From NCBI GenBank assembly GCA_963781065.1, contig CAWAET010000017.1, positions 90,805 through 154,804 on the forward strand: DNA of 64,000 nucleotides, read 5' to 3'. Position numbers and translations under genes: made by a program. This DNA is from Thermoanaerobaculia bacterium (GTDB taxonomy: Bacteria > Acidobacteriota > Thermoanaerobaculia > Multivoradales > JAHEKO01). The notes beneath the pieces were generated by a model, which was given only the letters and a program-made list of their open reading frames with translations, ran no database searches and was not told where the DNA came from. Shown one piece after another: positions 11,979 through 60,295 of this stretch (position 1 is its first letter; every line of letters starts with the position of its first letter).

Positions 11979-11997
11979 CCGGTATTTCCGGCCGGGC

Positions 11998-24169: not shown

Positions 24170-25970
<1,801 letters not shown>

Positions 25971-27858: not shown

Positions 27859-28014
27859 GGAACCCTCCCCCCGCAGCCTACCGCCCTGCCCACGCCTCCC
27901 GCCCACCTCTTCAGGCGGCGCACGGCGATGCCTCGCCAGGTAGCCTGGATACCGGCACCGCGTCACGCTGGACGCGATCCACAGCCGCCGGAAACCTTCA
28001 AAAAGGAGGCTCAG

Positions 28015-34802: not shown

Positions 34803-35150
34803 GCCGGCTACCGGAAGCCCGCGCCCACTCGGGCTGGGCGGGCCGGCGACTCAGACCAACTGGCCCTGTCGAAGGGAAGACGCTCGTAGACCCCGGAACG
34901 AAGCGAGGTCAGGATCTCGGGCACCTCTTCCTCGGCGGCCAGGAAGAACCAGGCGGCGAGGACGAACTCGGGCTGCCAGGTGGCCAGGCCGGGCCGGGCC
35001 CTGGCGCCTAGTCGGCACCTAATCGGTAGTTGCCACCCCGCCGGGTGGTGCCTGCTTCGTCATCGACAACCTAGCCTAACCAAGCTACCTGACACGCAGG
35101 AGAGTTGCGAGTTCTCCTGCTTTCAAATGCCGGCTTCTGAGGACCAACCC

Positions 35151-37454
35151 ATGACCACGAAGGTAACTGCAATCCAAAGGAAAGTGCTCGACGCCCCGGT
35201 GGTCGAGTGCCCCGTGCTCTCCGGAACGGCGCACGATGCCTTGCTGGTGCTGACAGAGACGACACTGCAGGCGTTTGACACGAGCCTCCGTCTGTGGCCG
35301 AAGTGGACGCACAAATTCCCCGCCGGTGCCTGCCCCAAGGGCCTGACGGTGTCGAACGACGTGGCTTATTGCGTGGCCGGGAACACGCTCTACGCCCTGC
35401 ACGTCGACGACGGGACGAGACCGAAGGAATGGAAAGAAGGATTCTTCAAGAGCACCTCCGGCAACGACTTCTTGCCCCCGGTCGCGCATGAAGGCCAGGA
35501 CCACATCTATGTCATCGACGAAGGGGGCACCGTCTACAAGGTCTCACGCGACTGGGGAACTGACCGCGGCTCAGCCGGCTGGCAGGTGACTCCGCAAGCC
35601 GGCCTGGTGAACTGGCCGCCGGCCACCGACGGCACCTGGCTCTACTATCAAGTCGATCACTACCTGCTGGCCATCGACTTGGAAAGTGGTGCCGAGCAAT
35701 GGCGCTTGAATCTGAAGGAATACGATGACGCATCGGACGGGTGGACAGCCGCGTCTCCGCTGATCGCGTGGCAAAGGAGAAGCGAAGGATACATGAGTGT
35801 GATCCTGCGCGACGACCGCTCCTTCTGCTGGATACTCGTGACGCGGAGTGACCTGAGCACCAAGAAGCTACCAAGCTGCTTGACGACTTTGACAGACGGC
35901 GAGTCGAGGTCTGCAAAGGTCCTCCATCTACGGCAGGAGGCTGGCATGGCAATATGCCATCCCCCAGCAGGACAGCCTGTCATCGACCCTAGTCCGTGGG
36001 ACTTCTCGACAGCCCTATTCTCATGGATTCCTCTCGATGAACCGCAAAAAGTCAGTCCGATCGGGTGCCCGTGGTACACCGAACCGCGGTCATGGCGCCG
36101 CTTTGCCGGCAAGAGCCTTGGAACCGCGCTGTACGGCGCGGCAAACCCTCCCGCGAAGGCACCGCCGACCTTCCTGCTGGCCGTCGACGATACCGTCCAA
36201 CTCCGGCGCACCGATCACCTCGCTACCGTGATCGGCGAGTACACGATCGACCTGCAGCGCTCCCATGGCCCGGTTTGCAGTGGCGATCGCAAGGTCTACA
36301 TGACCGGGACCGCGCTCGTAGATGGAAAAGAAGCCACTTTTGTGTCGGAGTATGTCGAATTCTCTCCCGACCCCAAGGCGCCTGGCCTCACGACCTGGAG
36401 GAAGATGGACCTCGGCACGCCCTCGGTTCCCAAATGGTCGGAGTGTGCGTTCGCTCACGCCAAGTTGCCCAACACAGGCAACAACGAGAACTGGACCCGC
36501 GTGTTGATAGTAACCACGTGGGATGAGTGGGGAGGAAGCGTCGAGGTATGGCGACTAGATCAGCTTGAAGTGTCGCAACCCGTACCGGGCGGCTTCAGTG
36601 GGCCGATATCCGCAGGTGTGGGTGTCTTCGAGAGAGAGGTTGACGGGAAGACCTTTCTACTGGCCCCCGATTCGACATACAACACGGTAACCGTAGCAGA
36701 GCTGCCATCCCGGTCGAGCACGACATTGCAGGTGACGAACCCGGCCGCCATCTGCATCGACGACACTCCTGAAGGAACTGCCTACATCGTCCAAGACTCC
36801 GCCACGGTCAAGCTCGAGCTTTCCGGCGATCCCGCCAGTTGGAAGAACCGGCACACGATCCCGACGGTAAAGGAATCGATCGCGATTGCCGTCCTGCCGT
36901 GCCTATCTTGCGGGGATCATGCGCCCCACATCATCAGCCGCACGGGTTCCATGACCGCGGACTTCCCCGAGTGGAAAACGTTTTCTGTCGATCTGGGCAT
37001 GAGCCACCCCTTCCGGATCGCCGGTACCGGTTGCCCACCTTGGGCCGCCTCTCTCTATATCGCCAACCGCCCGCCGATGGCGCCCAATGCCGACTACAGC
37101 GTCCACGTGTTTCAGGTCTCAATGAACGAGAAGGGGGACTCACCCAGCTACCAGAGCGTCAAGACGATTCCGCTCATAGGCAGCGACGGCCAGCCGCGCG
37201 CACCCTATGACCTCGCCCTGGTGCCTGGCGGCAAGTGGCTGCTGGTCACCGGACAGCTCGTCCAGGGCCTGGACTATTCGGAGGGCGCTACCGGCGAGAT
37301 CTTCGTGATCGACACCCTGAGCTACCAGATCGCGGCACAACTTGCGCCCGGAATAGCAGGGGATCCACAGGGCATCGCCGTGGCCCCCGAACGGGACAAG
37401 GTGGCATGGTTGACCAGCGAGCTGAACGTCGTCGTGGCCGACCTCACCTGGTAA
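35151..37454 (+). CDS. Large beta-propeller (PQQ/BamB-like repeat) protein, 767 aa, no signal peptide
   Basis: ATG after GAGGA. Recurrent TLYALH/IYVIDEGGTVYKV/YLLAIDLESGAEQW blade-like repeats. GC about 60%, lower than the core. 38 bp upstream of the giant gene. Confidence 0.55.
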   Translation: MTTKVTAIQRKVLDAPVVECPVLSGTAHDALLVLTETTLQAFDTSLRLWPKWTHKFPAGACPKGLTVSNDVAYCVAGNTLYALHVDDGTRPKEWKEGFFKSTSGNDFLPPVAHEGQDHIYVIDEGGTVYKVSRDWGTDRGSAGWQVTPQAGLVNWPPATDGTWLYYQVDHYLLAIDLESGAEQWRLNLKEYDDASDGWTAASPLIAWQRRSEGYMSVILRDDRSFCWILVTRSDLSTKKLPSCLTTLTDGESRSAKVLHLRQEAGMAICHPPAGQPVIDPSPWDFSTALFSWIPLDEPQKVSPIGCPWYTEPRSWRRFAGKSLGTALYGAANPPAKAPPTFLLAVDDTVQLRRTDHLATVIGEYTIDLQRSHGPVCSGDRKVYMTGTALVDGKEATFVSEYVEFSPDPKAPGLTTWRKMDLGTPSVPKWSECAFAHAKLPNTGNNENWTRVLIVTTWDEWGGSVEVWRLDQLEVSQPVPGGFSGPISAGVGVFEREVDGKTFLLAPDSTYNTVTVAELPSRSSTTLQVTNPAAICIDDTPEGTAYIVQDSATVKLELSGDPASWKNRHTIPTVKESIAIAVLPCLSCGDHAPHIISRTGSMTADFPEWKTFSVDLGMSHPFRIAGTGCPPWAASLYIANRPPMAPNADYSVHVFQVSMNEKGDSPSYQSVKTIPLIGSDGQPRAPYDLALVPGGKWLLVTGQLVQGLDYSEGATGEIFVIDTLSYQIAAQLAPGIAGDPQGIAVAPERDKVAWLTSELNVVVADLTW

Positions 37455-37492
37455 CCAGTTCCGCAGAACTCCGAAGCCATAGAAAGGAACCC

Positions 37493-40400
37493 ATGAGCAA
37501 AGCGAGTACCGGCCCTTGGAAGAAGTCCTTCATCACCGAGTCCAGGAAACTCAGCACCGCGCCGCACATAGCGGGCGACGTGCTCGTCGTATCTGGCGCC
37601 AACCACCTCTACGGAGTGAGCATCTACGACTCCGCGAACGTCTGGCAGCATTCGGTCACGGCGCCCGTTACCGACCTCTCCAGCGCCGGCGGTACGGTCT
37701 TCTTCCTGGGAACTCCCGCTGATTGGGGTGGGGATGACAACCCGTTCGTGGACAACATCCTTGTCGCGATCGACGCCGGCACGGGAACGGTCAAGCAGGA
37801 GTGGCTGACGGCCACCAAGGACATTTCCGACCTGCAAAGCCCGCGCGTGGAAGGCGGTGTGGTTCTGATCAGCACCTCGGACGGCGGGCTCTATGGATTC
37901 GACAGCCAGACTGCCGACCAGCTCTGGATGACGAGAATCGGGGAGGGCGCGACGCCCCAGCACCCGAGCGTTGGGCACGGCGCGGTCTTCGCCTTCGCCA
38001 ACGACAAGCTCTATGCCGTCAACGTCCGCAGCGGCCAGCAGCGCTTCTGCTTCGACGGCGACGGCGATTCGTTGGCCGCCCGATCCGCCGCCCTGGTCGG
38101 AGACGGCCTGGTCATCGTCAGCGGCCAGGCTCACCTGCACGCCCTGGACTGGAACACGGGAGAGGCCGTTTGGAAGATCGATGTGCCGGCCGGCCAGACG
38201 TGGAACACGCCAGTTGTCTCCTGGGACGGCGGCTGCCTGTTCGTGACCAGCACCCAGGGTCATGTGTACGCTTACCCGCTCGCGGCCGACGAACGCGATG
38301 CCCTGCGAAAGGCGACCGGCGAAGCCCACTTCTGGAACAGCACGGTCGACGACCTGGCGAGATCTTCAAACCTCTCGATGACCGACCCGGCCGCGCAGGC
38401 GCCGATCCTCGAGGAGGACGTCACCCTGGTGGACGTGGCCACCGGCCGTCTGAGGAAGGGCAGCAGGGTGTTCGTGCCGGCAAGCAGCGCCGCCATGGGA
38501 GCAGTGTTCGTCCTCGATCTGACGATCGACGGCAGCCGGGCCACAGACGAGAAGTACGCCGTGGAGCTCGGCTCGCACGTCGAGGTGCAGGACCCGCCGC
38601 GGGACAAAGCTCCGGCTCCGGCTGTCGCCAACGGCACGGTGTTCACCTCCTCCCGCAGCGGCGAGGTGACCGCGACCTCCTTCGTCGAGACCACCGCGCC
38701 GTTCTTCAGCGGAAAACCGAAGGTGACCGTCCCCGAGTCCGATGACTACCTGCTAGGCGCCGGCCCCTTCAGCGTCGAGGCCTGGGTGCGCACGACCGCC
38801 GGCGGCACCGTCCCGTTCCGCTCCCCGACAACCGCCGGCAAGACCGGTTTCCGCCTCGAGGTGGTCAACGACGCGTTTTTCTCGACAACCCAGACGCCGA
38901 GCGCTACGGGGACGGGCGCGTGGTCTTCTCGCTGGGCTCGGCAGAGACGTCCGCCGCGACCTCACCCGTCGCCTCGATCCTGCTCTTCGCCCAGTCGTCG
39001 GCGACTCCCATCGCCGACGGCCGCTGCCCCTGGCCTCATCCGCAAAGGCGACGAAGTCGAGATCTTCGTCGACGGTACGAGCCTGCCGGTCGACACCATG
39101 CTCCACCTGTCCCTGGTGCCCGAGGAGCACCGGAACCAGCTGCCGCCCAATCTGAGTGTTCTTTCCCCCTTCGATCTTGCCGCGCGACCTGATCGTCCCC
39201 GAGGTGGACTCGCCCGAGGCCCTGATCATCGGCGGCGACAGCCCCTCCGATCCCGTCTTCGAAGACGCCGATGTCAAGGGCTTTACCGGGCTCATCGCGG
39301 ACGTGCGCCTGTGGAGCACGCCTCTCGGTGCCCGCCAGATTCAAGACCGCGCGAGCAAGGAGCTGAAGGGGAACGAGCCGGGCCTGCTCGGCGACTGGCC
39401 CCTCAACCAGGCGGAGCCCAAGGACTTCAAAGACCTCTGCCACCACGACCGCAAGGTCGACTCGGCCACAGGAGTCAGCCTCAAGCCGACCAACCTGAGC
39501 CTGGACAACAGCCTCTTCCCCTACCTGCTCGACAGCGTCACGGCGGAGTGGCCCAACAAGGAACGCTGGATCGCGCGCGGCGAGGACGCGCCCCGTGGTC
39601 GCCCGGCCGCCTGCGGCGAGGTGCTGGCCTTCACCACCGACCAGTGGCTCTACGCCATCGATGCCGTTCACGGCACACGCAGATGGGCGCGCGAGCTCGC
39701 GTCGCCGAGCGAGCCGGCGTCCGACCGAAAGACCTTCTACGTCACGTCGGGCACGAAGGTCGTCGCCGTCGACGCCGAGACTGGCGGCAGCCCGTGGCAG
39801 GCCATCGACCTGAGTGAGCAGAAGCCAGCCTCCGACGTACCCGCCGCCAGCGGGCCACTGCTAGCGGTTTCCAACCGGTGCGTCGTGGTCTCGGTCGATC
39901 GCAAGACGGTCTACTGGCTGGACAAAGGAACCGGCGAGGTCCTGGGCACCTACTCCGCGACCAGCGCCATCCGCGGCGAGCTGGCGGCTCGCCACGACAG
40001 CGTGTACCTCGCGGCCGACAAGCTCTACCGCTTCGCCGACGCGTCCCCAAGCGTCGTGGCGGCCTCGGCCCCCGTCGAGCTTCAGGCCGGCTCCGAGCCC
40101 CGGATGTGCGTCGAGCGCGGCCGGCTCTTCCTCTGGAGCGGCGCCTGGATCGAGTCGCTCGATGCGGGCACTCTGAAGGTGCCGCAGGTCGAGACGGCGA
40201 GCGGTTCCAAGTCCCAGGCCTGGGCACCGCCCAGCGTCCCCGCCGGCGAAGCGGTGGTGGGCCTCGCCGCTTCGGCGGCGGGCAACCGTCTGGTCGCAAC
40301 GACAGACCAAGGTCGTGTGCTGTTCCTGGATTACGGCTCGGGCGCCCAGGTGAGCACCGCCACCCTGCCCGGACTGACGATCCCATACGCCTTTGCGCCG

Positions 40401-43400
40401 GTGATCGAGGGCCAGACGGCCTACGTCACAGGCAAGGGCACCGGAGGCCAGATCCCCGGCGGCGTCTATGTCTACGATCTGGCACACGGGATGCTGCGCG
40501 CCCGTGCGGAGGTTGACTCACCCCCGGTGAGCGCGGCGTACGCCGGCTGCGGAGCGGCATACTTCGGCTGCGACGACGGTGGCCACAGCGACGCCGAAGC
40601 CATGCACTCGGTGGTCTTCGGTCAAAACCTGGCGCTTTATCGGAAAGGCAGCGAAGAGGCGCTCACCGTGCCTGGAGTAGCAGGCAAGTTCGCCGGGGCG
40701 TCCGCCTCGCCGGCGGCCAACGCCTTCGCCACCGGCACCTTCAGCCTCGAGCTGTGGATGAACGCCGCGCCGGCCGGCGACTACGAGCTGCTTTCGCTCC
40801 CGCCCTGGACTCACAGCGGCCACGACTACGGCGGCTTCCGGTTGGCCGTGAGCGGTGGAGGGCTCGTTGCCGACTTCCTCGCCGCCGGGTCGGCGCGGCG
40901 GTTCACCAGCATCGACACCGGGTTGACGGATCGGGCGTTGGCACCACGTGGCGGCGGCATTCCGAACCGGCGCCGACGGTCAACAACTTTGCCACCTCTT
41001 CGTCGACGGAGCGAAGCTCGCCAACACCAGCTACGAGGACTTGCAAGGCGTACCCGAGCCGGTGCAAGAGCCGGAGATCACCGTCGGAGGCAGTGGTGAC
41101 TCGACCTTCCGCGGAATGCTGGACGAAGTCCGCGTATGGAATACGTGGCTTCACGACGCTGAAGTGGCTGGGCGCTGCAACGTCAGGCTGTGCGGCGACG
41201 AGCCGGATCTGCTCGCCTGCTGGCGTTTCGACGATGCCGCGGTACTCGACGCCTCTCCCAATCAGCTCGGCCATGACCCGGTCGGCCCCCTGAGCCGCTG
41301 GCTCACCGACCTGAGCTTCGAGCAGCCGCGCTACCCGTTCCTGACCGCTTCGACCAAGGCCGGCGAGCTGGTCACGGCGCCCCTTTCCGAAGGCCACGGG
41401 CGAACCATCACCTCGGCCACCTTCACCACCACCATCACCGCGCGCCGGGCCGACGGTACGCCGAGGCCGGAGACAGAGCTCACAATCGACATTGCCAAGC
41501 CGGCCTCGGGAGAGATCCAGGTCGCGAGTGGAGCGACCAGTGCCGGCGGCCACGATGGCTGCACGACCTATAGCGCCAAGGCGGGAACCGACGGGCGGGC
41601 CGTTCTGCGCTGGAAGATCGAGGGAGTCGATTCGCACAAGCCGGTGGCCTCGCCGGTCCTCGAGGTCAACGCCGACTTCATGTACCCCAACGAACGCTTC
41701 CTGGTCAGCTCGGTCCGCGAGAGCCAGAGGCACGTTACGCTGCCGCCGCCGACGCTGACCGTCAAGTCCGCCATGCTCCAGGACTACGACTGGGCGCCCG
41801 GGGACACGCTCGGCACCAAGGGTGCAAACGGCGAGGTCGTTCTCCAGCCGGGCGTCGACATCACCGCGATCCGCACCACGATCACGGCGCTCTCGGGCGA
41901 CGGCAGCCCGCTGCCCGGCGAAGACCTGGAGATCTGGGCCGACGACCACGTCACCGTCGAGTGCCAGGGGACCGCCTATCCGGTCAATAAGAGCAACTCG
42001 GTCAAGCTCAAGACCGGGCACGACGGCACGGTCGTGCTGGTGATCCCCGATAAATCGACTCCCGATGGCAACCTCCTCGACGTACCCACGCTCCAGGTCC
42101 GGGCGGGGTTCATGCCGAGGAGCGCGCGCGTCGTCTTTGGCCCGGCCGAGCAGGGCCACAAGACCCTCTCCCAGGTCACTGGGGATCAGGTGGCGGGCAG
42201 GGCGAAACTCACCGCCGACCGGCCCAACCGGACTCCCCTGGTGCCGCAGGAGATCGCTAAACAAACCGACTCGAGCGAATCGGTGGCGAAGGCCTTGAAC
42301 CAGATGGCTCGGCTGACTGCCCAGCACGAGCCGCAAGGGACGACTCATGCCGGCGGCAGCGGAACGCCGCTGTGGTCGGGCGCTCAGGGCGACAACCCCG
42401 ACCTGGCACCGCCGGACGCCGTGGCGTCGATCCTCAAGGCGGCCCATCAGCGCTACCGGGCGCCGATCACGCCCGATTACATGTCGGCCAGGCACTTTGT
42501 CGTGTCCCTGGATGGCATGACCATGACCTATACGGAGTTCCACAGCGCAGAGGACCTCGACGCTCATCTGAAGACCAAGCTGGGCAAGACCTACACCGAG
42601 CTGACTCGGGACATCGCCTACGGCGGCCCCGACGACCCCGCCGGCGGCTGGTTCAAGAGCCTCAAACATCACATATCGAGTGCTTGGCACTCATTCAAGC
42701 ACGGCGTCACCCAAGCCTGGAACAAGGCCAAACACTTCGTGGTCAAGACCTGGGACGAAGCCAAGAAAGACCTCAAGCAGGTGGCGCATTTCGTGGAGGT
42801 GACGGTCGCCGACGACCTCAATGCGATCGGCAAGTGGGTCATCAAGACGGTCAAGGACGTCGTCACCCATGTGGTGGCCTTCCTCAAGAAGATCGGGACG
42901 CTGATCAAGGACGTCATCAATTTCCTGCGGGCGCTGTTCGATTGGCCGGTGACCCTGGAGATTCACGATGTGCTCAGGGAAACGATCAATCAGAACCTCC
43001 AAGGACTGAAGGCAGATCTGCAGAAGGTCCTGCCCCAGGAGGCAAAGCGCGCCTTTGCGGACGCCAAGAAGGCTCTCGACAAGGCACTCGGCGCAACGGG
43101 CAGCGGTGGTGGCGGCGCCCTGAGGGGTTACGGGCACCAGGCTTCGGGAACCTCGGCAAAGGTGCTCTCCCACGCGGGCAGCAACAAGTCGCACTACCTC
43201 CACCACAAGATCCGCGAGCACGGGCACGGCCACAGGTCGGTGCCTCGCGACCCCTTTCGTCAGGCGCCGACCGGAGACCCGCCTTTCGGAGAGATCGGCG
43301 CGCTCACCAGCCAGGGTGACCTAAACCTCAACCAAGCCTTCCAGCAGCTGGTCGGCGACCTCCAAGCCCTTCTGGATCAGCCGGGAGGCCTCACCGCGCT

Positions 43401-44466
43401 GACGCCTCACGAGCTTCTCTCGTTGGTCGAGGACTTGCTGACTCTCCTGCTCGATCTCGCCGAAGATGTCACTCTCGCCATCATGTACATTTGCGAGCTG
43501 CTCGTCGCTGGAATCAAGGACCTGCTCAATCAGGAGATCCACATCCCGTTCATCTCGGATCTCTATAAACTGATCACCGGCGGCGATTCGCTAACGATTC
43601 TCGACGTGCTTTGCCTCCTGGTGGCGATCCCGGTGCACCTCGTAGGTGCCGTGATCGGCTTGCCGAAGTTCGACAAGGGAGAGTTCAAGAGCGCTGCCGG
43701 GAGCAACGCTCTGTTCGGTAACAGCCAGGATGCGGACTTGGCGGCTCGCCAGAGCTTCGGAGCAAGTCAAACAGAGAGCGTCTCGGCCGCCACCAAGTGG
43801 TGGGACGTCAGCCACCTGATCTTCGTGTTCTTCAACGGCCTTCTATCGGGAGCACAGGACATCCTGCAGGGGAACATCAACGCCGAAGACCCGGAGGAAA
43901 CCGGCAATCAGGCCAAGGAGGAGGTGAACGTGGGAACCGGCATGTTCCTGCTCGGCCTGGCCTCTCACATCACCGCCATCTTGGCGCAAGTCAGCTTCTG
44001 GATCGTCTGCGGCCAGATCGGCAGAGGCAGTAGAATCCGGGTCGTCCGGGTTCTCGAGTTCACGCCCTCCGTCCTCCACGCGGGGGCCATGGTCTTCGGC
44101 GTGCGAAGCCAACTCGCGGGCGCCGCTCAGACCTACGGCAAGGTCTCCGTAAAGGGCCTGGGCAAGGTGCCGAAAGAGCCGCTAATGAGCCTGGTCGGTC
44201 TGGCGGCGGTCCTGGCGTCGATGGTTACCACCCTGGGGCACTGGGACCAAGAGGACGGCCAGGACCGAGCGGAGGGTTTGATCACCCTGGTTTCGGGCCT
44301 CAATCTGGCCTTCACTTTTCTCATCTGGGGGCCGGTAGCGCTGGCCTCGGAGGTTGACGGCGTTCCGACCTCTCCCCTCGCCAAAGGTGCGATGGATTTC
44401 GCCGTCTCCAGCGTCACCGCGCCCGTGGTTCACCTGATGGCAGGCTACGGCAAGGAAGTCCTGTAG
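37493..44466 (+). CDS. Giant (about 2320 aa) multidomain protein: beta-propeller, LamG/ConA-like, second beta-propeller, second LamG, bacterial Ig-like domains, and a C-terminal helical domain with 5 hydrophobic helices; reading frame broken at least 4 times
   Basis: Three overlapping ORFs (37235-39817, 39156-41099, 40948-44466) plus a short third-frame piece (38920-39192) splice into one continuous sensible protein. The frame changes are at T5 (38876-38880), C4 (about 39026-39030), C5 (39166-39170) and near 40920-40935. LamG hallmarks: FSVEAWVR, EIFVDG, FTGLIADVRLWS, GRWHHVAAAF, LFVDGAKL, GMLDEVRVWN. The C-terminus 43590-44355 has five 20-30-aa hydrophobic segments. Confidence 0.6.
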
Positions 44467-45812: not shown

Positions 45813-45865
45813 TGGTGTCCCCAGCGGGATTCGAACCCGTGTTACCAGCTTGAAAGGCTGGGTGC
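45813..45865 (-). tRNA. Partial tRNA-Glu(UUC): 3' 50 nt only (anticodon arm, variable loop, T-arm, acceptor 3' strand + CCA); att-site-like remnant
   Basis: The minus strand reads CCCAGCCTTTCAAGCTGGTAACACGGGTTCGAATCCCGCTGGGGACACCA. This is collinear with positions 27-76 of E. coli tRNA-Glu (anticodon loop CUUUCAA, T-loop TTCGAAT). No D-arm or 5' acceptor strand (GTCCCCA) is present upstream. Confidence 0.65.
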
Positions 45866-45984
45866 AGAATCCAGCAAGTCTCCCTATTTGAGTGACTTAC
45901 GAGCAGCAACTGAATGGGTGGTGACCTTCTTGGTCACCTACGCTAGCGACTTCGGCGATGGGCAGCAGCGCGTAGCTTTGCCGA

Positions 45985-48646
45985 CTAGCGGGTCCCGGCT
46001 CTGCGCTTGTGGATTCCCTTTACCCAGCGTTCTAGCTCAGCAACATCTGCGGTGAGCTCCTCCGGCTCGGGCACAGGTACATTCTCCGCTGCTGCTTGGT
46101 CGTGGCCGGGAAGCCACCGGGAGGCCTTGGACATTGCGGCCTCCAGCGTCCTGCAGTCCTTCTCGTTGATATCTGAGAGCAGGCCGACTCGGAGCGTTTG
46201 AATGGAAGGGCGGTAGCGTTGGACGACGCCAGCCAATAGGACTTCCTCGAGCGCACGCTCCCACGCCTCGCGGAGTAAGCCGTAGATGTAGATGGCTTCC
46301 TTCTCGTAGACGTCTCGAGAACTCTTCCGGAAGAGCTTCTCTACCGCCTGGCATTTCTGCTTGAGCACGCCAATTCGGTCCTTGACGCGCATGGCGACCC
46401 ACGGGAGTTCCGGTGACGCAACGCCAGCCCCAAGCGCGTCGCTCCTCACGTACTGGTACACGCACTCGCAACCAGCCTCCTCCGCTCCGCCAGCTAAGGC
46501 CAGCACGAAGACGATGTCGTGGGTGAACACTACGACTTGGCGGTGCTGCGCCTCCTGGGCTAGGCGACGTGCCACATTCTCGCGCCACACATGGTCAAGC
46601 GACGATACCGGATCGTCGAAGAGAATGGCCGACTCATCGGAGGCGGTAGCCAGCTCCGCGAAGAACGAGGCAATCGCAAGAGCACGAGCCTCCCCTTCAC
46701 TCACTACGCGATACAGCGTGGCACCGGGAGCACGCTTCAGGACCAGCCGATGGTAGAGGGCACCACGTTGACCCCCAGCAGCTTCGAGCACTACTTCGAG
46801 ATGGGTGAAGCCGATGCGTTCGAGCTCCGTCCGGAAGGCACCTGCCAGCTGGTCCGTGACAGCCCGCTTTGTAACATCCGTACTCTTGCGCGTAATGTCC
46901 CGCGTGTTCGTCTCGCGAAGACAGAGGCTGTACGCGGCTAGCTGCTTCTTTCGTTCGATCTCGGCAATGACCGCGTCCGCCCCCTTCCCGAGACTCTCCC
47001 TGGCGGAGAGCTCGCGAATCTCGCCATGGAGCTGTTCGGCGGCCGCCTGCGGTTTCTGGCCGGCCAGTTCGGAGCTACGGGCCTGCAGCGCAGCACTTTC
47101 TTCGTGGATTAGCGCTGCAAGCCCGGCCTGCAATGGCGGCAGACCAGCCGGCATCTCCGAGCCCTTGTCGAGAGTCACAACAACCTCTTGCTGGCGTTTC
47201 TCGCTGCGGCAATGAGCCCCGCGGCCTTGCTAGCCAGGGCGGTGTTCTCTAGGCGGAGTTCGGCCAGCTGGTTCTCTGTGGCTTCGTGGCGGTCGGACAA
47301 GTGCTTGAGCTCGAGGACTGAGCGCTGCCACGACACCCTCTCCTGGTCCACACTCTGTTGCAGCGTTGACCCTACGTAGTCCTCGAAGTTGCTCGAGCCG
47401 CCTCACGGCGGCGGGAGCCAGGGCCTGCTGGCAGAGCACACAGTGGGCCCCTTCGTGGATATGTGGAAACGGTTTGCCACGGTACGCACTCCCGGTCGAG
47501 AAGGCCCGTGCCGCCTCCCAGAGCTTTCGCCACAGGGGGCCACCAGACCCTGGAAGCAGGTCAGCCGGAAGAACCTGGTGGCGGTGTTCAGTCGCTGCCG
47601 ACTCTGCTTCTGAGAATGCCGTCCTCCGGTCGAACAGCGAATCCAGTCCCTCGTCACCCACGACGGAGACCACTGAGTCCACGTGCCTTGCGAGTGCCTC
47701 GACACGCTCTCCTCTCAGCCGCAGGGTCGCTGCACAGTCTCTTCGGGTCCTGTGCTCTTAGGTCGTCGAGCCGTTTGCGTAACTCCGCGAGCGCACGCTG
47801 TTCTTCCTCTGCGAGCGTGCCAAGGGAACGTACCCGTTCTGGCTGCGTGAGTGAACTCAGCGAGGCAAGTAGCTTCGCCGCCTCAGTACCCTCCGGAAGC
47901 TCAGGAAGGGCGTTCCGCTGAGCCTCAAGGACTCGCTGTTCCCGTTCGAGGATCCGCTTGACCGCCTGGCAAGCGTTGGAGAGTCCGTCAAAGAGGTCCA
48001 AGCCGAACGGCCGGAACGCTACGTCGGTCTTCTCCCGCAAGTACACGCTGGCGCAGTGGGTGTCGAAGACACTCACGTGGCCGAGCGCATTGTCAGGCTC
48101 ATCCTGGTCGGCCCACGCGAACTCCTTCTCTTCGTCTCCCGATCTGAACGAGATCGTCGCCGCCGGCCGGGCCGGCGCTTGGCTCTGGAATACATTGCCG
48201 AGAATGCTCTCAGCTCCTCGCGCGCGGCAGGCCCGCTTCAGTATGCGGGTATACCCGGACTTTCCGGCAGCGTTCGGTCCGTAGACAATCGTAAGGTCGG
48301 GGCCGAATTCGATCTGTTGCCCTGCCGCGAGTGCGTTTACGCCGGCGAGGTGGGTTAGCGAAGATAGGCTCGTTGGCGAAGATCCCGGTGTCCTTTGTGG
48401 GAGGTGACGCTTCTCTAGAGGATGGGCCACGGCGACTTCTGGGTCGGCGAGGCCATGCTCCGCTTTGCAGAGACCGGCCAACTCCTCGGCATCTTCTTGG
48501 CCGGGCTCTCCCTGGGTGACTAGACGCCGGAGGGCATCTCGTTGCCAGGCTGGAAGAGACGCTGACCAAGACAGGATCTCAGCGAGTACGTCCACGGTAG
48601 ACGGCCTCGTCTCTCCGGGTCGCGTTGGTTCCTTTGGCTTCCGCAT
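45985..48646 (-). pseudogene. Rad50/SbcC-like ABC ATPase with CxxC zinc hook (RloC/PrrC-like candidate anticodon nuclease or related defence ATPase); disrupted by a frameshift (about 47655-47682) and an in-frame TAG (47230-47232)
   Basis: N-terminal piece: Walker A IVYGPNAAGKSGYTRIL. Middle piece: coiled-coil with HCVLCQQ. C-terminal piece: signature-like VSEGEARALAIA, Walker B AILFDDPVSSLD, H-loop VVVFTHD, then a roughly 190-aa C-terminal domain containing WLPGHD. Confidence 0.55.
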
Positions 48647-48727: not shown

Positions 48728-50437
48728 CTACTCTTCCGACTCCGCGGTAGCCGCCTCCAGGGCTTCGAAGTACGGCAGGAAATCCGCCCAGATGCGACCT
48801 GCCAGCCCGGCGTCGACGACCTTGACGTTAGGCACGGGGGATTCCTGGCGCCAGACCTTGATGATCAGTGCTGCGCCGGGCCTGAAAGCCTCCGGGGGAT
48901 ACTCGTAGGCGCCGAAGAAACCGATGTCGTCCATGCTCTGCAGGCCCGCCTCCATGCTGACGACCTGAGCGATGCGGCCCGGGTGGATCGGTTGCACGAG
49001 GGTCTGGCCTCGATAGAGCTCCATCCTCTCGAAGTCGGTCTTGAACCTGTAGCGGGTGGGGACGCTCGGCCCGGCGAGTGCCACCGCCCAGGCGGATCCG
49101 GTCGTCATGCGTATTTCAGGAACGGCCTGCACCACGACCACTGGGCGGTAGTCTCCGGCATAGCGGCGCCATTCGTAGAAGTCGCCCGGATCCGAGACTT
49201 TCCTTGCGTTCGCCTTCCTCCTGGTCCTCTTGTTGCGGGTCCTTGCCGCGGCCTTCTCGACCTCGATCTCCAGTGCCGCGATAACCACCGGCGTCATGAA
49301 CTCCACATCGATCTTGCCCGCCTCCAGGTGGTAGAGATTCGGTGTCAGGTTCTTCCTCTGGGCGAGCACGCGCAGCTCTTCCGCGGGAAAGGTGAACGTC
49401 GACTCAATCGGCAGCCTTTCCAGCGGCGGCGGCGAACTCTCGCCCAGGCCGGCACGGGCCTCCTCGAGCACCGCGGCAGCGAGGTGGATCCTGACAATTC
49501 CCGACACGCCCGGGCCGACCCTGCCCGACCCTATGCCGAATGTGTTGACGCCGATCACCCGCCCGCGCGAATCGAAAAGGGGGCCACCGGAGTTCCCAGG
49601 GTTTATGTTCACGTCGCTGTAGATGGCTCCCTGCTCCACCTTGCTTACCAGGCCGCTGGTGAGAATCGTTTCCGTCACCAACGGGCTGCCGATGGCAACG
49701 ACGCGCTCTCCGACTCCGAAGGACGGCCGCTCTGGAGTCTCGCCAGCGAGCTCGAGGGCGCGCGCGTTCTTCACGGCGACCGGATTGACCTGCAGCACCG
49801 CCAGATCATTGAGATCATCCTGCGCCACGAGCTTCGCCGAGTACTTGTTCTGCTTGTCGACCTTGACCGCCAAGTACTCCGAGTCGGCCACCACATGGTG
49901 GTTCGTCAGCACCAGACCCGCTTCGGCATCGACCAGGAAGCCACTGCCGTGCCCGCCCTCGGCGGAGATCTTGAAGACACTGTCCTTGAAGCGGCGGAAG
50001 ATGTCGCCCTCGTCGAGGGCCACGCTCCGCTCGACTGACGTTTCCAGCTCGACGACCTCCGCGTTGTCGTTGGACAGCTCCACCACCGTGCCACCTTCGG
50101 CCGGTACTTCGAAGGCGAGCTCCCAGCGATAGCGCGCCCCCTCGAACTCCACCGGCGCCCGACTCGAAATGACGTACCGGCCGACAGGCAGATCAGCCTC
50201 CGCCTCGCCGGTGAAGCCGGTTGTGATCTCCGTGGGGCCACCGTCGCCGTCTTGCGGCCGGATCTCGAAAGTCTGCTTGGGCACGGGCCGCAGCGTTAGG
50301 TCCGAGGCCACAAGAATGACCCGTAGAGTGAGCCTCCCTGACGCCGGCGGTGGGTCCTCACCTAGCATCGGTGAGGCACCGGCCAACGAGAGGATCGCCA
50401 GAATCATGAGAACACACGAGGACTGTTTCAACACCAT
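48728..50437 (-). CDS. Secreted trypsin-like serine protease (S1C/HtrA-like catalytic domain) with N- and C-terminal extension domains
   Basis: Signal peptide MVLKQSSCVLMILAILSLAGA. Catalytic triad context GHGSGFLV...TNHHVV (His), DLAVLQV (Asp), GNSGGPLFD (Ser). The start is Met95 of the ORF. Confidence 0.75.
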   Translation of the reverse strand: MVLKQSSCVLMILAILSLAGASPMLGEDPPPASGRLTLRVILVASDLTLRPVPKQTFEIRPQDGDGGPTEITTGFTGEAEADLPVGRYVISSRAPVEFEGARYRWELAFEVPAEGGTVVELSNDNAEVVELETSVERSVALDEGDIFRRFKDSVFKISAEGGHGSGFLVDAEAGLVLTNHHVVADSEYLAVKVDKQNKYSAKLVAQDDLNDLAVLQVNPVAVKNARALELAGETPERPSFGVGERVVAIGSPLVTETILTSGLVSKVEQGAIYSDVNINPGNSGGPLFDSRGRVIGVNTFGIGSGRVGPGVSGIVRIHLAAAVLEEARAGLGESSPPPLERLPIESTFTFPAEELRVLAQRKNLTPNLYHLEAGKIDVEFMTPVVIAALEIEVEKAAARTRNKRTRRKANARKVSDPGDFYEWRRYAGDYRPVVVVQAVPEIRMTTGSAWAVALAGPSVPTRYRFKTDFERMELYRGQTLVQPIHPGRIAQVVSMEAGLQSMDDIGFFGAYEYPPEAFRPGAALIIKVWRQESPVPNVKVVDAGLAGRIWADFLPYFEALEAATAESEE

Positions 50438-50821
50438 TACGCGCCTCCCTCTGTACTCGAGTCTGCCAGGCTCGAGCGCGAGAGGATGCCTCCTGCCCAC
50501 AGAATCGCCCTCATGCCTTCGAGTTGGCGCCGGCGGAATCAACCGCAATCCCCCTGCCCCTCCTGGTTGGTTTCGACAGACTATGACGTAGGCGAAAGCA
50601 GTGTCGCCACCCTCACGGGTGGCCACACGCCAATATAGGGTCTCCCTACTTTTCGCCGGAGCAGCGCCGAGCACCAAAGCCACAGGCTCTCCCAGCACAT
50701 CTGTGGCGGTCGACACCACTAGAAGCCGCCCTCACACCCGATTCCTCACGACCTTCCGCCCGAAGATCCTGAGGACTCTCGGGCGCATATGAAACCTACT
50801 AATCTGGGCACCTATCTGGCG

Positions 50822-52282: not shown

Positions 52283-52440
52283 GGGTGCCTCCCTTCTCGG
52301 CCCGCTGGCCAGCCTCGCGAGCCGCTCAACAGTGGCTGTCGCCAGCCTAGCCCTGACCTTAGCGCCAGATCGCCACCCGGACGGGTGGCTGTTCCGCGTG
52401 GACAGATGTCATGCGTTTCGGGCAGGGATGGCGCGGCAGC

Positions 52441-53845
52441 TCAGCGCTCGATTCCGAGCCCCATCCCGCGAGTGATGATCCGCGCCGGAGCCTTGGCCAG
52501 TGCCACCGTGACCCGAAGAGCGTTGAAGGCTGGGCCGGGTATGAGCCGCGCCACGGCCCGCCAACCGAGCCGCCGAACCACCGAGACCGCCTGGGCTCGA
52601 AGTCGCTTCTCCGGCGCGTAGCGTCGATCGAGCGCCTCCAGCCGTCTGAGCGCCCGTCCAAGAACCTGCCGCGCCCGACCTGCAGCCTCGAGCACCGGGT
52701 GCTTCGGATTCCGGCGGAAGGGCTCCAATCGCTGAAGCGCAGTGCGCTCCGCCTGCCGCGCCGAGGCGTAGCTGCGGATCGCCCCGGGAACCCTCTCGCG
52801 CAGAGCATCGCGAGCCTGACCGCGAGCCCGCGAGGCGACATGGCCGTGGAGCTTGCCGGCACTGGCAGGCCGCTCGCTGAGGGCTCTCAGCGTTGCCCCT
52901 GCCCCGTGACGTTCCAGGGTCGCCTCGATTCGCTGCCGGGCCGCAACGGGATCGCGATAGACCCGACCCAGCGCCGCATCCAGTTGGCGCGAGGCCTGGC
53001 TCACCCGCTCGGCTGCCCGCTCGTGGTCGGCGAGGGCCCTGCCCAGCCTCGCGAGCGAACCCTGATACCGCCCCCGCATCGCCTCCAGCCGCCCCCGGCT
53101 CATCAGCTGCCGCGAGATCTCCTGGATCTTCCGCAGATCCGGCGACGCCGGCTCGAACTTCCCCAGCCGCGCCTCGAGCCGCGGCCGGCTCATCTCCCGC
53201 TCGACCCTCGACGCCGCCACGTACCGCCGCCCATCGGTGATCACCAGCCCCCGCCCCGCCCGCGACGGCTGCAGCGTCAGCCCCTTCTGCGACAGCGACG
53301 CATGCAGCTCCTGCCAGCCCTTCGCCTCCCGAAAGCTCTCCCCCGCCAGCTCCCGCACGTTCTCGACGAACTGCCCTCTCCCCGGCCGCGTCCCCAGGTA
53401 CCGATCCTGCCCCGGCACCGGCGAATGCCGCCCCGGCACGATCCTGCAGCCCCAGCTCCCGCTCCTGCTCCCGCAGCGAGGTCTCGATCCGGTGGTAGTC
53501 GTGCGAGCCCACCCAGGCCCGCCCGGTGTCCGGGTGGACCCGGTTCACCATCAGGTGGATGTGCTGCTGGGCGCCGTCGGCGTGCTCGGCGATCAGCGCC
53601 TGGTGCTCGGCGAGGCCCAGGTCCTGGAGCAGCCGGTCGGCGACCCGCTCGAGCTCGGCCCGTTCCAGCCGCTCGCCGGGGGCCAGGCTGACCGAGAGGT
53701 GATAGACGGGCTTCTCGGTGCGGCTCGAGGCGTTGGCCGTCGCGCGCATCACGGCCGCGGCCTTCTCCGGGTCGGGGTCCGGGAGGTTCCGGGTGGCGGT
53801 CCAGATCGAGCGATCCGGCACCAAAAGGTGCCGTAGGCTTCGCAA
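52441..53845 (-). pseudogene. MOB-family conjugative relaxase (MobA/VirD2-like) with frameshift near 53440; copy 1 of 3
   Basis: N-terminal relaxase domain with VYHLSVSLAPGE and the 3-His motif HADGAQQHIHLMVNRV. The C-terminal half continues in another frame (…WQELHASLSQKGLTLQPSRAGRGLVITDGRRYVAASRV...). Confidence 0.65.
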
Positions 53846-54870: not shown

Positions 54871-55542
54871 ACGCTTGCCATCGACATCTGGTCCGACATC
54901 GCATGCCCGTGGTGCTGGGTGGGCAAGCGGCGCCTGGAAGAAGCCATCGATGGATTCCGGGGAAACGTCGCTCTCACCTGGCGAGCGTTCGAGCTCGACC
55001 CGGCCGCCCCGACGGAGGCGCCGGAACGAGTCGACTATGCCCAGCGGCTGGCCGCCAAGTACCGCACGACCCCTGACGAGGCCCAGGCGATGATCGACCG
55101 GATGGTTGACGTCGGCCGCTCGGTCGGGCTCGAGCTGCGGTTCGACCGGGTGCGCCCGACCAACACTTTCGCCGCTCATCGCCTGCTGGCGTGGGCCGTC
55201 GGGTTCGGGCGTCAAACCGACCTCGAGGAACGGCTCTTCGCGGCCTATCTGAACGAGGGCCTGGCCATCTCGGAGCACGACGTTTTGTGCGGACTCGCCG
55301 AGAGCGTCGGCCTCGACCCCGAGGCCGCCGCCGTGGTGCTCGAGAGCGACGCCCACGCCGATGAAGTGCGCCAGGACCAGGCCCTGGCCGCGCGGCTCGG
55401 CGTCCGTGGGGTGCCCTTTTTCGTGCTCGACCAGCGCTACGCCGTCTCCGGGGCGCAGCCGGCCGAAGAGCTGTTGGCGGCGATGCGCCAAGCTACCGAC
55501 GATCTGTCACCGGCATCGGCGGCTAAACCATGCCCCTCCTGA
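54865..55542 (+). CDS. DsbA-family thiol-disulfide oxidoreductase (FrnE/2-hydroxychromene-2-carboxylate-isomerase-like)
   Basis: GTG start. CPWC active site (IWSDIACPWCWVGK). Thioredoxin fold with inserted helical domain. Confidence 0.75.
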   Translation: MTTLAIDIWSDIACPWCWVGKRRLEEAIDGFRGNVALTWRAFELDPAAPTEAPERVDYAQRLAAKYRTTPDEAQAMIDRMVDVGRSVGLELRFDRVRPTNTFAAHRLLAWAVGFGRQTDLEERLFAAYLNEGLAISEHDVLCGLAESVGLDPEAAAVVLESDAHADEVRQDQALAARLGVRGVPFFVLDQRYAVSGAQPAEELLAAMRQATDDLSPASAAKPCPS

Positions 55543-55711
55543 TCCTGCTGCTGCTGAGCACCGTCGAGCCGGCCCCAACCGGGCCCTACCTGGTCTTCGG
55601 CCTGTCGCCCGAGATGACCGGCCGCCCCGGGACCTGAGGCGAAGCTACTCAGCCTCGCGTCAAAGTCCCTTTGGGGGGGCGGAGGAGGCGGGACGGAGGT
55701 CGGAGCAGCTC

Positions 55712-56365
55712 TCAGCCGGGGTAGTTCTTGCTCAACTCCGCGCTGAGGAGCGCCGCAAGCGGCTCGAGCCCGAACGGCTCCAACGGCTTTCCATTGACGA
55801 AGAAGCCCGGAGTCAGGCGAACACCAAGAGTCTCGGCGTCGGCGAGATCCTGCTCGATGATGGCCGTGATGCGCGGGTCGTTCATATCCGCCCTGAGCCG
55901 CTCGAGGTCGAGCCCGACGGTGGGCAGGAGCTGCCAGACCTGGTCGAGCCTCACCTGATGGTGCTGAGTCCAGAGGCTCTGCGAACGATAGAGCTGGTCG
56001 AGGGTTTGCCAGTACTTCCCCTGCATCCGCGCCGCTTCCAGAACCCGGACCACATCGCTTGACCCCCCGTGGAACGGGGCGTAACGGATCACGAGCCGGA
56101 TCTTGCCCGGATGGCGGTCCATGATCTGCTTCACGAAGGGCGAGAAGGCGGCACAGGTCTCACACGCCGGATCCGTGAACTCGACGAGGTAGACCCTGGC
56201 ATCGTCGGCACCAAGAGCGGGCGAGTGAGGCCGAACGAAAGTCGAGGCTCGCTCCTGAGCCAGGAAACCCAGCTTCTCGGCGCGCCGCTTCTTGAGCTGC
56301 GACGCGCCGAACCAAAAACCGACAATCAGAATCAGGCACGTAACGATGAACAGGTTGCGCTTCAC
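55712..56365 (-). CDS. Membrane-anchored DsbA/BdbD-like thiol-disulfide oxidoreductase
   Basis: GTG start (Val106 of the ORF) after GGAGGAG. N-terminal transmembrane helix, CETC active site (EFTDPACETCAAF). Overlaps the dsbB stop. Confidence 0.75.
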   Translation of the reverse strand: MKRNLFIVTCLILIVGFWFGASQLKKRRAEKLGFLAQERASTFVRPHSPALGADDARVYLVEFTDPACETCAAFSPFVKQIMDRHPGKIRLVIRYAPFHGGSSDVVRVLEAARMQGKYWQTLDQLYRSQSLWTQHHQVRLDQVWQLLPTVGLDLERLRADMNDPRITAIIEQDLADAETLGVRLTPGFFVNGKPLEPFGLEPLAALLSAELSKNYPG

Positions 56366-56817
56366 TTGGGACTCCTCCGGTGGACGGCGAGCAGAATTCC
56401 GGTCAATGCGGTGAACCCGAGCCAAGAGAGCATCGGAATCGACAAGAATCCGAAGAGCTCCAAATACTCCTCGGTACACGACACGCCCTGGGTGCAGGGC
56501 TGCAGGCGTTCCGGGACGATCCCGGCGTATACGAGATTGTGATAGCTGGCCACGAGCCAACCCAGGGTCGCCAGAGGCAGGGCGTACCTGACCACGGCGC
56601 GATCGAGTGGGAACAGCCCTCTGGCGAGCACGATGACCAGGGGAAACAGGAAGATCCTCTGATACCAGCAGAGGACGCACGGAGCAAAGCCCATGACGTA
56701 GCTGAAGAAGAGGCTACCCGCGGTCGCGACCGCAGTGATCAGCCAAGCCGAAAAAAGCAGAACCCAGTCCAGTTCTGGCCTCTCGGCGGGGGAAGCCCCG
56801 CTACCGGCGCGATTCAT
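56362..56817 (-). CDS. dsbB: Disulfide bond formation protein B (DsbB/BdbC family)
   Basis: 4 transmembrane helices, CVLCWYQR and C...C second pair (CTQGVSCTEE). Confidence 0.8.
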   Translation of the reverse strand: MNRAGSGASPAERPELDWVLLFSAWLITAVATAGSLFFSYVMGFAPCVLCWYQRIFLFPLVIVLARGLFPLDRAVVRYALPLATLGWLVASYHNLVYAGIVPERLQPCTQGVSCTEEYLELFGFLSIPMLSWLGFTALTGILLAVHRRSPK

Positions 56818-58307: not shown

Positions 58308-59209
58308 TGCGACCGGCCACGGCTTTCCTGTTTCTTCTGCTTGCCGTCAGCGCGGGCCTCAGGGCGGAGATCTTCAACGAAGACGTCACGATTCAGACCA
58401 CCGACCCCGACCTCTTCCTGGTCGACTCCGACGGCACGACCTGGTTGGTCGAAGCGGACCCGACGAGCGCGCCCAACGGCTTCGCGATCGCTCGCAACCC
58501 GGGCGACCACGAGGTCTTTGTCCTGGAGGACGACGCACCGGCATCAACCATCTATGTCGACTCCAGCGGCAGGATCGGCCTGGGCACCAGCGCCCCTGTG
58601 GCGGATCTCGACATCTTCGACCCGAACGGCAGCTCCATCGCCTCGCTGGGCCTCACGACCTCCACGAGCAGCTGGGTCGTCTCTACCACCAATGACGAAT
58701 TCCGGGTGACCAGCGGGGCGAACCCCAACGACCCCGCTCCCTTTCGCATCTACCCAGGAGCCCCGGCGAATTCGATCCGCATCCAGAGCACCGGAGTGAG
58801 TATCAACGGGGCCGTCGTCACGCTTTCCAGCCGGGAGAGCAAAGAGGCGTTCGAGAAGGTCGACACGCGGGAGATTCTGGATCGCGTGCTGCAGCTGCCG
58901 CTCAGCCGTTGGACCTACAAGACCGACCCCTCCGGCGCGCGTCATCTCGGACCGATGGCGGAAGACTTCCATACGGCGTTCGGCCTGGGTCCCGACGAAA
59001 CAGGAATCGCGACCATCGACGCGAGCGGCGTCGCCCTGGCCGCGATCCAGGGCCTCAAGATCGAGCACGACGCCCGCATCGCCGAGCTGATCCGAGAGCA
59101 CCAGGCCGAGACCGCCTCGCTACGGGTCGAACTGGCAGAGCTCCGGCGCCTGGTGGCCGGGCTGCTGGAGGACAGCCTCGAGGGGGCGGTCGCGGAGGCC
59201 GGGCCCTGA
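58304..59209 (+). CDS. Secreted tail-fiber-domain protein with C-terminal intramolecular-chaperone (peptidase S74-like) domain
   Basis: Signal peptide MMRPATAFLFLLLAVSAGLRA. The C-terminal ...LSRWTYKTDPSGARHLGPMAEDFHTAFGLG...IDASGVALAAIQGLK... matches the endosialidase-chaperone-type autoprocessing domain. Confidence 0.65.
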   Translation: MMRPATAFLFLLLAVSAGLRAEIFNEDVTIQTTDPDLFLVDSDGTTWLVEADPTSAPNGFAIARNPGDHEVFVLEDDAPASTIYVDSSGRIGLGTSAPVADLDIFDPNGSSIASLGLTTSTSSWVVSTTNDEFRVTSGANPNDPAPFRIYPGAPANSIRIQSTGVSINGAVVTLSSRESKEAFEKVDTREILDRVLQLPLSRWTYKTDPSGARHLGPMAEDFHTAFGLGPDETGIATIDASGVALAAIQGLKIEHDARIAELIREHQAETASLRVELAELRRLVAGLLEDSLEGAVAEAGP

Positions 59210-60042: not shown

Positions 60043-60295
60043 TGGGAACTCTCCCTTTTTCGCGATGGCGACATCCCTGTCGCCAAGTTGACAGAGGCGC
60101 TGCCGGCCTTAACCCGCATTCTTGGAGCCGGCTGCACGCGACGAATCTGGGGAATACTAACTCAGTGCGGGCTCGACCGCGCTCGTGGCGAGGGCCGAGG
60201 GCCGGTCGCCTGATCGCCCGCCAATAGAGGTTCCACCCATTTCGGAACTCAAGAGGCGAAGATTGCCTCGGCAGAATCCGTCCAATCCCATTGAG

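Follow-up and report, generated by a model that had tools for sequence, protein, structure and literature searches.

RloC proteins are defined by the ATP-binding cassette (ABC) motifs that they share with PrrC, by an insert of coiled coil carrying a CxxC motif, and by a C-proximal Arg-X3-Glu-X36-52-His pattern (PMC2610378). Their activity is the excision of the wobble nucleotide by an anticodon nuclease that is controlled by a zinc hook and a DNA-dependent ATPase (PMC2610378, PMC3458546), and their expression is toxic in E. coli (PMC2610378). In the Geobacillus protein the triad is formed by R692, E696 and H737 (PMC2610378), while K44, C291 and D572 are further landmarks of RloC from G. kaustophilus (GkaRloC; PMC3458546). 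The HEPN superfamily includes the RNase domains of both PrrC and RloC (PMC3710099). For the Bacillus cereus group, DefenseFinder reports as RloC the very proteins that PADLOC reports as PDC-S06 (PMC11811056, supplement file 6). The gene described here lies in a stretch of 64,000 nucleotides from a Thermoanaerobaculia bacterium (contig CAWAET010000017.1, positions 90,805 to 154,804), which was analysed as a whole and is called the window below. It occupies 45985..48646 on the minus strand and, on the strength of profile matches, is assigned to a large, uncharacterised clade of RloC-like proteins known to PADLOC as PDC-S06, a candidate defence system of a single gene.

The gene starts with the ATG at 48646 and ends with the stop codon at 45985-45987, and it encodes 886 amino acids once three single-nucleotide insertions or deletions (indels) are corrected. 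As assembled, it is spread over four open reading frame (ORF) pieces on the minus strand. The first (47654-48646, 330 amino acids) holds the Walker A sequence GPNAAGKSG, the second (47230-47682, 150 amino acids) holds HCVLCQQ, the third (47175-47351) is of 58 amino acids, and the fourth (45985-47178, 397 amino acids) carries SEGE, FDDPVSSLD, FTHD and the C-terminal domain. With E-values of 1e-70 to 1e-220 for the pieces and for the reconstruction, the match to PDC-S06 puts the gene far beyond chance. Residues 21-882 of the corrected protein align with positions 4-857 of the 858 of model PDLC04891 (E 1e-220), and a second PDC-S06 model, PDLC04893, is matched at E 1e-179. PDC-S06 bundles at least 13 sub-models (PDLC04886-04898 were matched here), most of which match the protein only in its ATPase part. 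Pfam scans of the corrected protein returned AAA_13 (residues 395-715 against positions 249-575 of 713), AAA_21 and SMC_N. The full-length profile match and the lack of any conserved partner gene in 70 loci of relatives agree with a single-gene system; no experimental validation of PDC-S06 was found in the literature searched, and it is a candidate system only.

The full-length query retrieved 2057 homologs at E <= 1e-10. The best 120 of these are nearly all of 860-880 amino acids, with 48-73% identity over 97-98% of the query, and the closest match among those listed is the intact 881-residue protein P0241 (73% identity over 98% of the length). The homologs are annotated at source as "AAA family ATPase" and come from Planctomycetota, Myxococcota, Acidobacteriota, Desulfobacterota and even archaea. 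When species-representative genomes were scanned, relatives appeared in at least 377 species, spread over many bacterial phyla and some archaea and with cultured strains included; intact copies are present in the cultured Stieleria marina K23_9, Thiomonas delicata DSM 16361, Acidithiobacillus ferruginosus CF3, Eoetvoesiella caeni DSM 25520 and Halopseudomonas xiamenensis PX1. The notion that the family is usually split, raised by fragment queries that gave proteins of no more than 693 and 573 amino acids, was discarded, since such queries yield nothing longer than about twice the aligned length and hide the full-length family, and the full-length query shows that intact proteins of 860-880 amino acids dominate.

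The protein is predicted to be a Rad50/SMC-like ABC ATPase whose head is split by a helical insert of about 400 amino acids, with an invariant CxxC at the midpoint of the insert. Conservation was counted in an alignment of the corrected protein with the 120 closest listed intact homologs, to which all counts out of 120 refer. The Walker A motif or P-loop, GPNAAGKSG (48254..48280), has invariant G128, K129 and G131, with G128 and K129 in 120/120. In the signature-like SEGE (46690..46701), S649, G651 and E652 are kept in 119 sequences and E650 in 117. Walker B and the D-loop, ILFDDPVSSLD (46594..46626), lie within the Pfam AAA_13 and AAA_21 matches, and D677, D678, P679, S681, S682 and D684 are present in every homolog, as is H709 of the H-loop or switch FTHD (46516..46527). 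Hence the ABC motifs expected of RloC (Walker A, signature, Walker B with D-loop, and linchpin His) are all found, at 117-120/120. The stretch HCVLCQQ (47425-47445) contains the putative zinc hook, C402-V-L-C405 (47431..47442), whose two cysteines, both conserved in 120/120, precede a conserved QQ. Each of the motifs named in the initial annotation (GPNAAGKSG, HCVLCQQ, SEGE, Walker B and H-loop) was in this way recovered on the minus strand between 45985 and 48646.

The AlphaFold model of P0241 (predicted local distance difference test score, pLDDT, 86; predicted template modelling score, pTM, 0.63) gives the same arrangement. A three-helix N-terminal unit (17-60) is followed by the N-lobe of the ABC head, the helical insert of about 400 residues (213-609), the C-lobe of the head (616-742) and a C-terminal helical domain (752-880). 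The CxxC sits in the only central break of the insert (385-407), so that a head-splitting helical insert with a central CxxC, the putative zinc hook, is seen both in the sequence and in the model. Among solved structures the best match of the model is Rad50 (7zr1, E 1.4e-9), and SMC heads, RecN, JetC, LmuB and AriA are matched as well; AriA is also the best match among PDB sequences (E 2e-4, in the Walker B region). The N-terminal extension (48458..48589) forms the three-helix unit, carries the near-invariant motif P-x-WQRDALRRL and matched no family in the Pfam scan. It amounts to about 85-100 amino acids, and the position of the Walker A lysine, Lys44 in GkaRloC and Lys129 here, implies that the G. 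kaustophilus protein would be without it.

The C-terminal part (45988..46416) is a helical, HEPN-like domain and a putative RNase. It had been described as a domain of roughly 190 amino acids; the domain is there, with a size of about 145-170 amino acids. Its Arg/Glu/His motif, which the initial annotation had made the touchstone of an anticodon nuclease, is formed by R792-x3-E796 (46258-46272) and H848 (46102-46104), conserved in 120, 118 and 120 of the 120 homologs; W795, R797 and D849 are likewise found in all of them, and an E793-x3-R797 is also present. The spacing R792-x3-E796-x51-H848 fits the published X36-52 range, the agreement being limited to pattern and spacing. The landmarks of the two proteins are colinear, K44, C291, D572 and R692-E696-H737 of GkaRloC corresponding to K129, C402, D677 and R792-E796-H848 after an N-terminal extension of about 85 residues, and Walker B and the arginine stand 120 residues apart in GkaRloC and 115 apart in the present protein. 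Modelled in isolation with AF2, the domain folds into five helices (pLDDT 84, pTM 0.80), and the PDB structures that Foldseek ranks highest for it are nearly all HEPN proteins (2hsb, 7ae8, 4nqf, 1wol, 1ufb, 6m6u, 5yep), with E-values of 0.04-1 and TM-scores of 0.4-0.5. The RloC-type organisation first proposed for the gene is thus supported by the Rad50-like head, the central CxxC, the triad pattern, the spacing colinear with GkaRloC and the PDC-S06/RloC equivalence in B. cereus.

The nature of the frame disruption was established by three-frame translation and by tblastn with the intact homologs P0009 and P0241. Read on the minus strand, codon starts fall on 1 mod 3 from 48646 to ~47735, on 0 mod 3 from there to ~47389, on 2 mod 3 to ~47200, and then on 0 mod 3 again until the stop. 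At the first site (~47734) an extra T, CTG[T]GCA, carries frame A into frame B; the tblastn segments of P0241 break there with one residue between them, and Leu followed by Ala agrees with the family consensus ...DPEKLARQL.... At the second site (~47388) an extra C, CAA[C]TTC, carries frame B into frame C, and RRLEQ joined to FEDYVGSTLQQ aligns without gaps to KRLAAFEESVQSTLQQ of P0241. At the third site (47197-47199) a run of A is short by one A (AGA AA[A] CGC) and frame C returns to B; once the A is restored AAARKRQQE is read, and P0241 has AAARKRQQA. Placement of this last site at the TGA 47175-47177 was ruled out by the P0241 alignment, which locates it in the A-run.

Between the second and third sites the true frame reads FEDYVGSTLQQSVDQERVSW..., matching the homologs, and over 47388-47200 the third frame, FEDYVGSTLQQSVDQERVSWQRSVLELKHL..., matches FEESVQSTLQQEADRARESYRKSLLNLQQL of P0241. 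For the frame that bears the TAG, tblastn detected no similarity to homologs in this interval. The TAG triplet at 47230-47232 is therefore out of frame and is not a nonsense mutation; the true frame there is gcc ctg gct agc aag, that is, ALASK. The disruption first described as one frameshift and an in-frame TAG consists instead of three single-base indels.

Whether these indels are real or arose in the assembly was judged from the rest of the window, where codon-usage segmentation followed by Pfam scans located frame changes in several unrelated genes, each within one strand and with no intervening stop codon. The GTP-dependent phosphoenolpyruvate carboxykinase (PEPCK) gene (24212-25958, plus strand) is broken just before the HPNARF motif, with positions 1-126 of PF00821 in 24212-25270 and 142-352 in 25317-25958. 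The class I fumarase gene (27994-29620, plus strand) is broken at ~29060, with Fumerase in 27994-29064 and Fumerase_C from its position 23 in 29057-29620, the first frame being stop-free until 29658. Further breaks were found in a TonB-dependent receptor (9428-11975, plus strand; ~9790, dividing STN from CarboxypepD_reg-Plug-barrel), a GDSL lipase (14270-15512, minus strand; ~14720), the giant PQQ/LamG genes (34980-44466, plus strand; ~39160 and ~40950, with LamG domains cut in two) and a relaxase (52409-53845, minus strand; ~53420), and a candidate break (~5740) precedes a TPR protein (5250-7530, plus strand). Altogether at least 11 single-base indels were detected in 64 kb. Since PEPCK and fumarase are also broken, the assembly is indel-prone, and since housekeeping genes of the window are broken alike, the indels of the RloC-like gene are most likely assembly errors. 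The corrected protein points the same way. It differs at only 1 of the 215 alignment columns that are at least 95% conserved (V868 for I, a conservative change), against a mean of 3.3 for intact homologs, so the corrected sequence gives no sign of relaxed selection. Among the relatives, those with a single frameshift (loci L030, L032, L043, L058 and L071) all belong to assemblies with record names that hint at long-read metagenome-assembled genomes. That the three indels are an assembly artefact is thus probable. Sequencing error, which had been offered initially as the second choice, explains the locus better, since PEPCK, fumarase and others are broken alike, and inactivation driven by toxicity becomes doubtful because other genes of the window have lost their frame as well and relaxed selection has left no apparent trace.

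Two features of the indels weigh against an artefact. Their local density is high, with 3 in 2.66 kb, all of them within 540 bp, against at least 8 in 61 kb elsewhere; this is about eight times as many and is not explained by uniform random error. Moreover, two of the three sites lie outside homopolymers, the third site alone falling in an A-run. The clustering could result from low coverage of a mobile element, from context-specific basecalling errors or from very recent real mutation. If the indels were real, the gene would be a pseudogene whose inactivation is very recent. One cause might be the toxicity of an uncontrolled anticodon nuclease, RloC being toxic when expressed in E. coli (PMC2610378), and another the decay of the mobile element on which the gene sits; the relaxase gene of that region has also lost its frame. 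Real pseudogenisation does occur in the family. Relatives that look truly decayed include copies with a deletion (L010, 7583-9373), with 5' truncations (L025, beside a tRNA-Lys, and L059) and with an insertion of about 1.3 kb (L074, 1138-2427). However, the true frame of the gene described here shows no deletion, premature stop or insertion sequence, its changes at conserved sites stay below the average of the intact homologs, and the indels are not specific to it, the core metabolic PEPCK and fumarase genes being frameshifted as well. A true and recent inactivation is, for these reasons, a possible but doubtful explanation, and the technical origin of the indels is preferred.

A separate question is whether the C-terminal domain is a nuclease of the RloC type, and here several observations count against the assignment. 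The matches to HEPN folds are weak at the E-values and TM-scores given above, and His848 lies in a low-confidence loop of the domain model. The arginine of the canonical Rx4-6H motif (R843, 46117-46119, in R/K843-x4-H848) is Arg in 62 and Lys in 52 of the 120 homologs. Sequence-profile methods gave no connection between the domain and PrrC, any HEPN family or the C-terminal stretch of AAA_13. The alignments of the PADLOC PrrC model and of Pfam AAA_13 stop at the H-loop, the PrrC model matching just the Walker B/H-loop stretch with E-values of 3e-4 to 8e-4, and comparisons of 36 isolated C-terminal domains with Pfam at E <= 10 and of the domain profile with PDB sequences yielded noise only. Searched against 1.84 billion representatives, the domain profile found about 2,400 clusters at 50% identity; the 150 matches listed always lie at the C-terminal end of proteins of about 860 amino acids or of fragments, and they show the same architecture only, with no bridge to other families. 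The likeness to PrrC and to anticodon nucleases that had been expected of this domain therefore holds for the spacing of the triad, and the profile scans (PADLOC PrrC, Pfam and PDB sequences) gave no homology. Homology of the putative nuclease domain is likely. Because of the triad pattern, the colinear landmarks, the weak HEPN fold matches and the DefenseFinder/PADLOC equivalence, the protein can be filed, as far as sequence allows, as an RloC-like member of the PDC-S06 family.

Two other views of the domain have to be considered. The clade of 860-880 amino acids could be a functionally distinct branch of RloC-like nucleases, in which the WQRDALRRL domain would be a new sensor or docking module, the C-terminal domain a diverged RNase of the HEPN type that has an RNA target and a trigger of its own, and the local excess of indels a real effect of counter-selection on a decaying mobile element; this is conceivable, yet unlikely. 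Quite improbable is the view that the protein is no anticodon nuclease at all, being instead a Rad50/SbcC-like ATPase of repair or chromosome maintenance, or a defence ATPase with a non-nuclease regulatory domain at its C-terminus. Rad50 and SMC are indeed its closest solved structures, and the missing sequence matches to PrrC, the AAA_13 C-terminus and HEPN profiles, together with the statistically weak fold matches, would agree with such a role. However, neither an Mre11/SbcD-like partner nor any other conserved neighbour was found in the 70 loci, the patchy distribution, often beside restriction-modification or tRNA genes, is typical of defence cargo, the invariant R-x3-E ... H-D stands at the triad spacing of RloC, and the equivalence of PDC-S06 and RloC in B. 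cereus speaks for the nuclease.

Programmed frame changes, by recoding or phase variation that controls the expression of a toxic gene, are exceedingly improbable: one site lies in a short A-run, but three shifts in differing directions would be needed with no slippery motif, the 120 closest listed intact homologs and most genome-locus copies are single ORFs of 860-880 amino acids, no conserved shift sites were seen in orthologs, and unrelated housekeeping genes share the defect.

By analogy with G. kaustophilus RloC, the protein would dimerise through its head and its zinc hook, and in the dimers intramolecular zinc-hook joints and the ATPase would hold the C-terminal RNase silent. The RNase might then be released when the head hydrolyses ATP and the protein binds DNA, DNA ends above all, or when such hydrolysis coincides with DNA damage caused by phage. 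Once released, it would cut the anticodon loops of tRNAs and shut down translation in infected cells, which would amount to an abortive-infection defence. Taken as a whole, the explanation that unites an RloC-like member of PDC-S06, a mechanism of the RloC type by analogy, indels that are most likely assembly errors and carriage as cargo of a mobile region is considered moderately probable.

The surroundings of the gene appear to make it cargo of a mobile region of lower GC content, 61-66% in the region of the gene against 67.5% in the whole window. On the same strand it is preceded by a gene for a trypsin-like protease (48728-50719). Downstream, 115 nucleotides from the stop codon, lies the 3' fragment of a tRNA-Glu(UUC) (45813..45870, minus strand), which comprises the anticodon arm, the T arm, the 3' strand of the acceptor and the CCA and lacks the 5' half. 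The adjacent fragment noted at first is thereby real, as the 3' part with the UUC anticodon arm; it scores 18 bits against the tRNA model, whose threshold is 29. ARAGORN finds no tRNA in the 64-kb window, which holds neither an intact tRNA nor a second copy of the fragment, and Rfam at the gathering threshold together with ARAGORN gave no RNA gene there. The fragment is probably a remnant attachment site and would mark one boundary of an integrated element lying on its higher-coordinate side. A link between this tRNA and the function of the nuclease was considered and rejected, as the relatives adjoin tRNA genes of varied kinds (Arg, Lys, Leu, Gln, Met) and not to Glu in particular, which favours the attachment-site reading. 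Towards higher coordinates, the MobA/VirD2 relaxase gene (52409-53845, minus strand), a gene with the tail-fibre chaperone domain Peptidase_S74 (58325-59200, plus strand) and an IS200-like Y1 transposase gene (60293-61168, plus strand) lie in the half of the window with the lower GC content and belong to the mobile region, and no integrase was found among the window ORFs scanned. A cluster for disulfide-bond formation (DsbA-like, thioredoxin-like and DsbB; 54877-56742) was also observed inside the putative mobile region.

Within the window, the RloC-like gene has no restriction-modification gene and no other recognised defence gene nearby. PADLOC, applied to ten neighbouring ORFs, gave no second defence system, and only generic trypsin-like protease similarity for 48728-50719. 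The relatives present a different picture. Among 132 neighbour proteins in the 70 loci, the commonest families all belong to restriction-modification (N6_Mtase 8, ResIII 6, HSDR_N 4, Methylase_S 3, Eco57I 3, Type ISP 2 and Mrr 2-3); several copies adjoin tRNA genes of various kinds. Such neighbours make the pattern one of mobile defence cargo, as in the history of RloC as a "restriction-linked ORF". In five proteobacterial loci (L003, L004, L006, L016, and L068 at 10438-12444, plus strand), a conserved gene of 667 amino acids comes after the RloC-like gene and overlaps its stop codon, and the N-terminus of its product resembles a GHKL/HATPase-type ATPase; either the system has a two-gene form in that subclade, or the five loci may simply share an island.

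Apart from the RloC-like gene, the very large PQQ-like beta-propeller/LamG genes on the plus strand are a feature of the window in their own right. The last of them codes for a long hydrophobic stretch at the C-terminus, and, given the LamG domains cut at the frame changes, the run may represent one giant gene or two, split by indels.

The locus itself is a further instance of a widespread candidate defence gene, with a disruption that probably has a technical origin. The frequency of single-base indels in the window (at least 11 in 64 kb, PEPCK and fumarase included) makes pseudogene calls unreliable, and any such call in this contig should be distrusted. The wider interest is in the PDC-S06 subclade, in which the RloC architecture goes with an additional N-terminal domain and with a C-terminal domain that no Pfam model covers, and which is abundant, its function being a candidate one only.

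Compared with the known systems, the protein has the head fold of Rad50, SbcC and SMC proteins together with their CxxC hook and long antiparallel helical insert. It differs from them in its much shorter coiled coil, in an additional C-terminal helical domain with a putative RNase triad and in having no Mre11/SbcD partner, no family of that type being found among the 25 commonest neighbour families of the 70 loci or the window neighbours scanned. With PrrC of E. coli, an abortive-infection tRNase, it has in common an ABC ATPase N-domain and a putative C-terminal Arg/Glu/His triad of the anticodon nuclease type. PrrC, however, is short (about 400 amino acids), is without a coiled-coil/zinc-hook insert and is always found in a type Ic restriction-modification locus, whereas the present protein has 886 amino acids and a helical insert of 400, and no hsd genes lie in its neighbourhood in the window. 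The ABC ATPase-HEPN fusions APECO1_4465 and ERFG_01251 (Anantharaman et al. 2013) and AriA of PARIS would resemble it in coupling an ABC ATPase to a defence effector that targets RNA or tRNA; AriA differs in having no zinc hook and a separate Toprim partner. RloC of G. kaustophilus (Davidov & Kaufmann 2008, Klaiman et al. 2012) shares with it the ABC head split by a coiled coil, the central CxxC, the Arg-X3-Glu-X36-52-His pattern, the colinear spacing and a single-gene organisation in which linkage to restriction-modification is only occasional. The clade described here departs from RloC by its N-terminal helical extension of about 85-100 amino acids with the invariant WQRDALRRL, by a Gly instead of a Ser before the His, and by a C-terminal domain whose sequence has no detectable similarity to the PrrC or AAA_13 models. 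With PDC-S06 (PDLC04891/04893), the family of the gene itself, the protein matches from end to end and with no structural difference.

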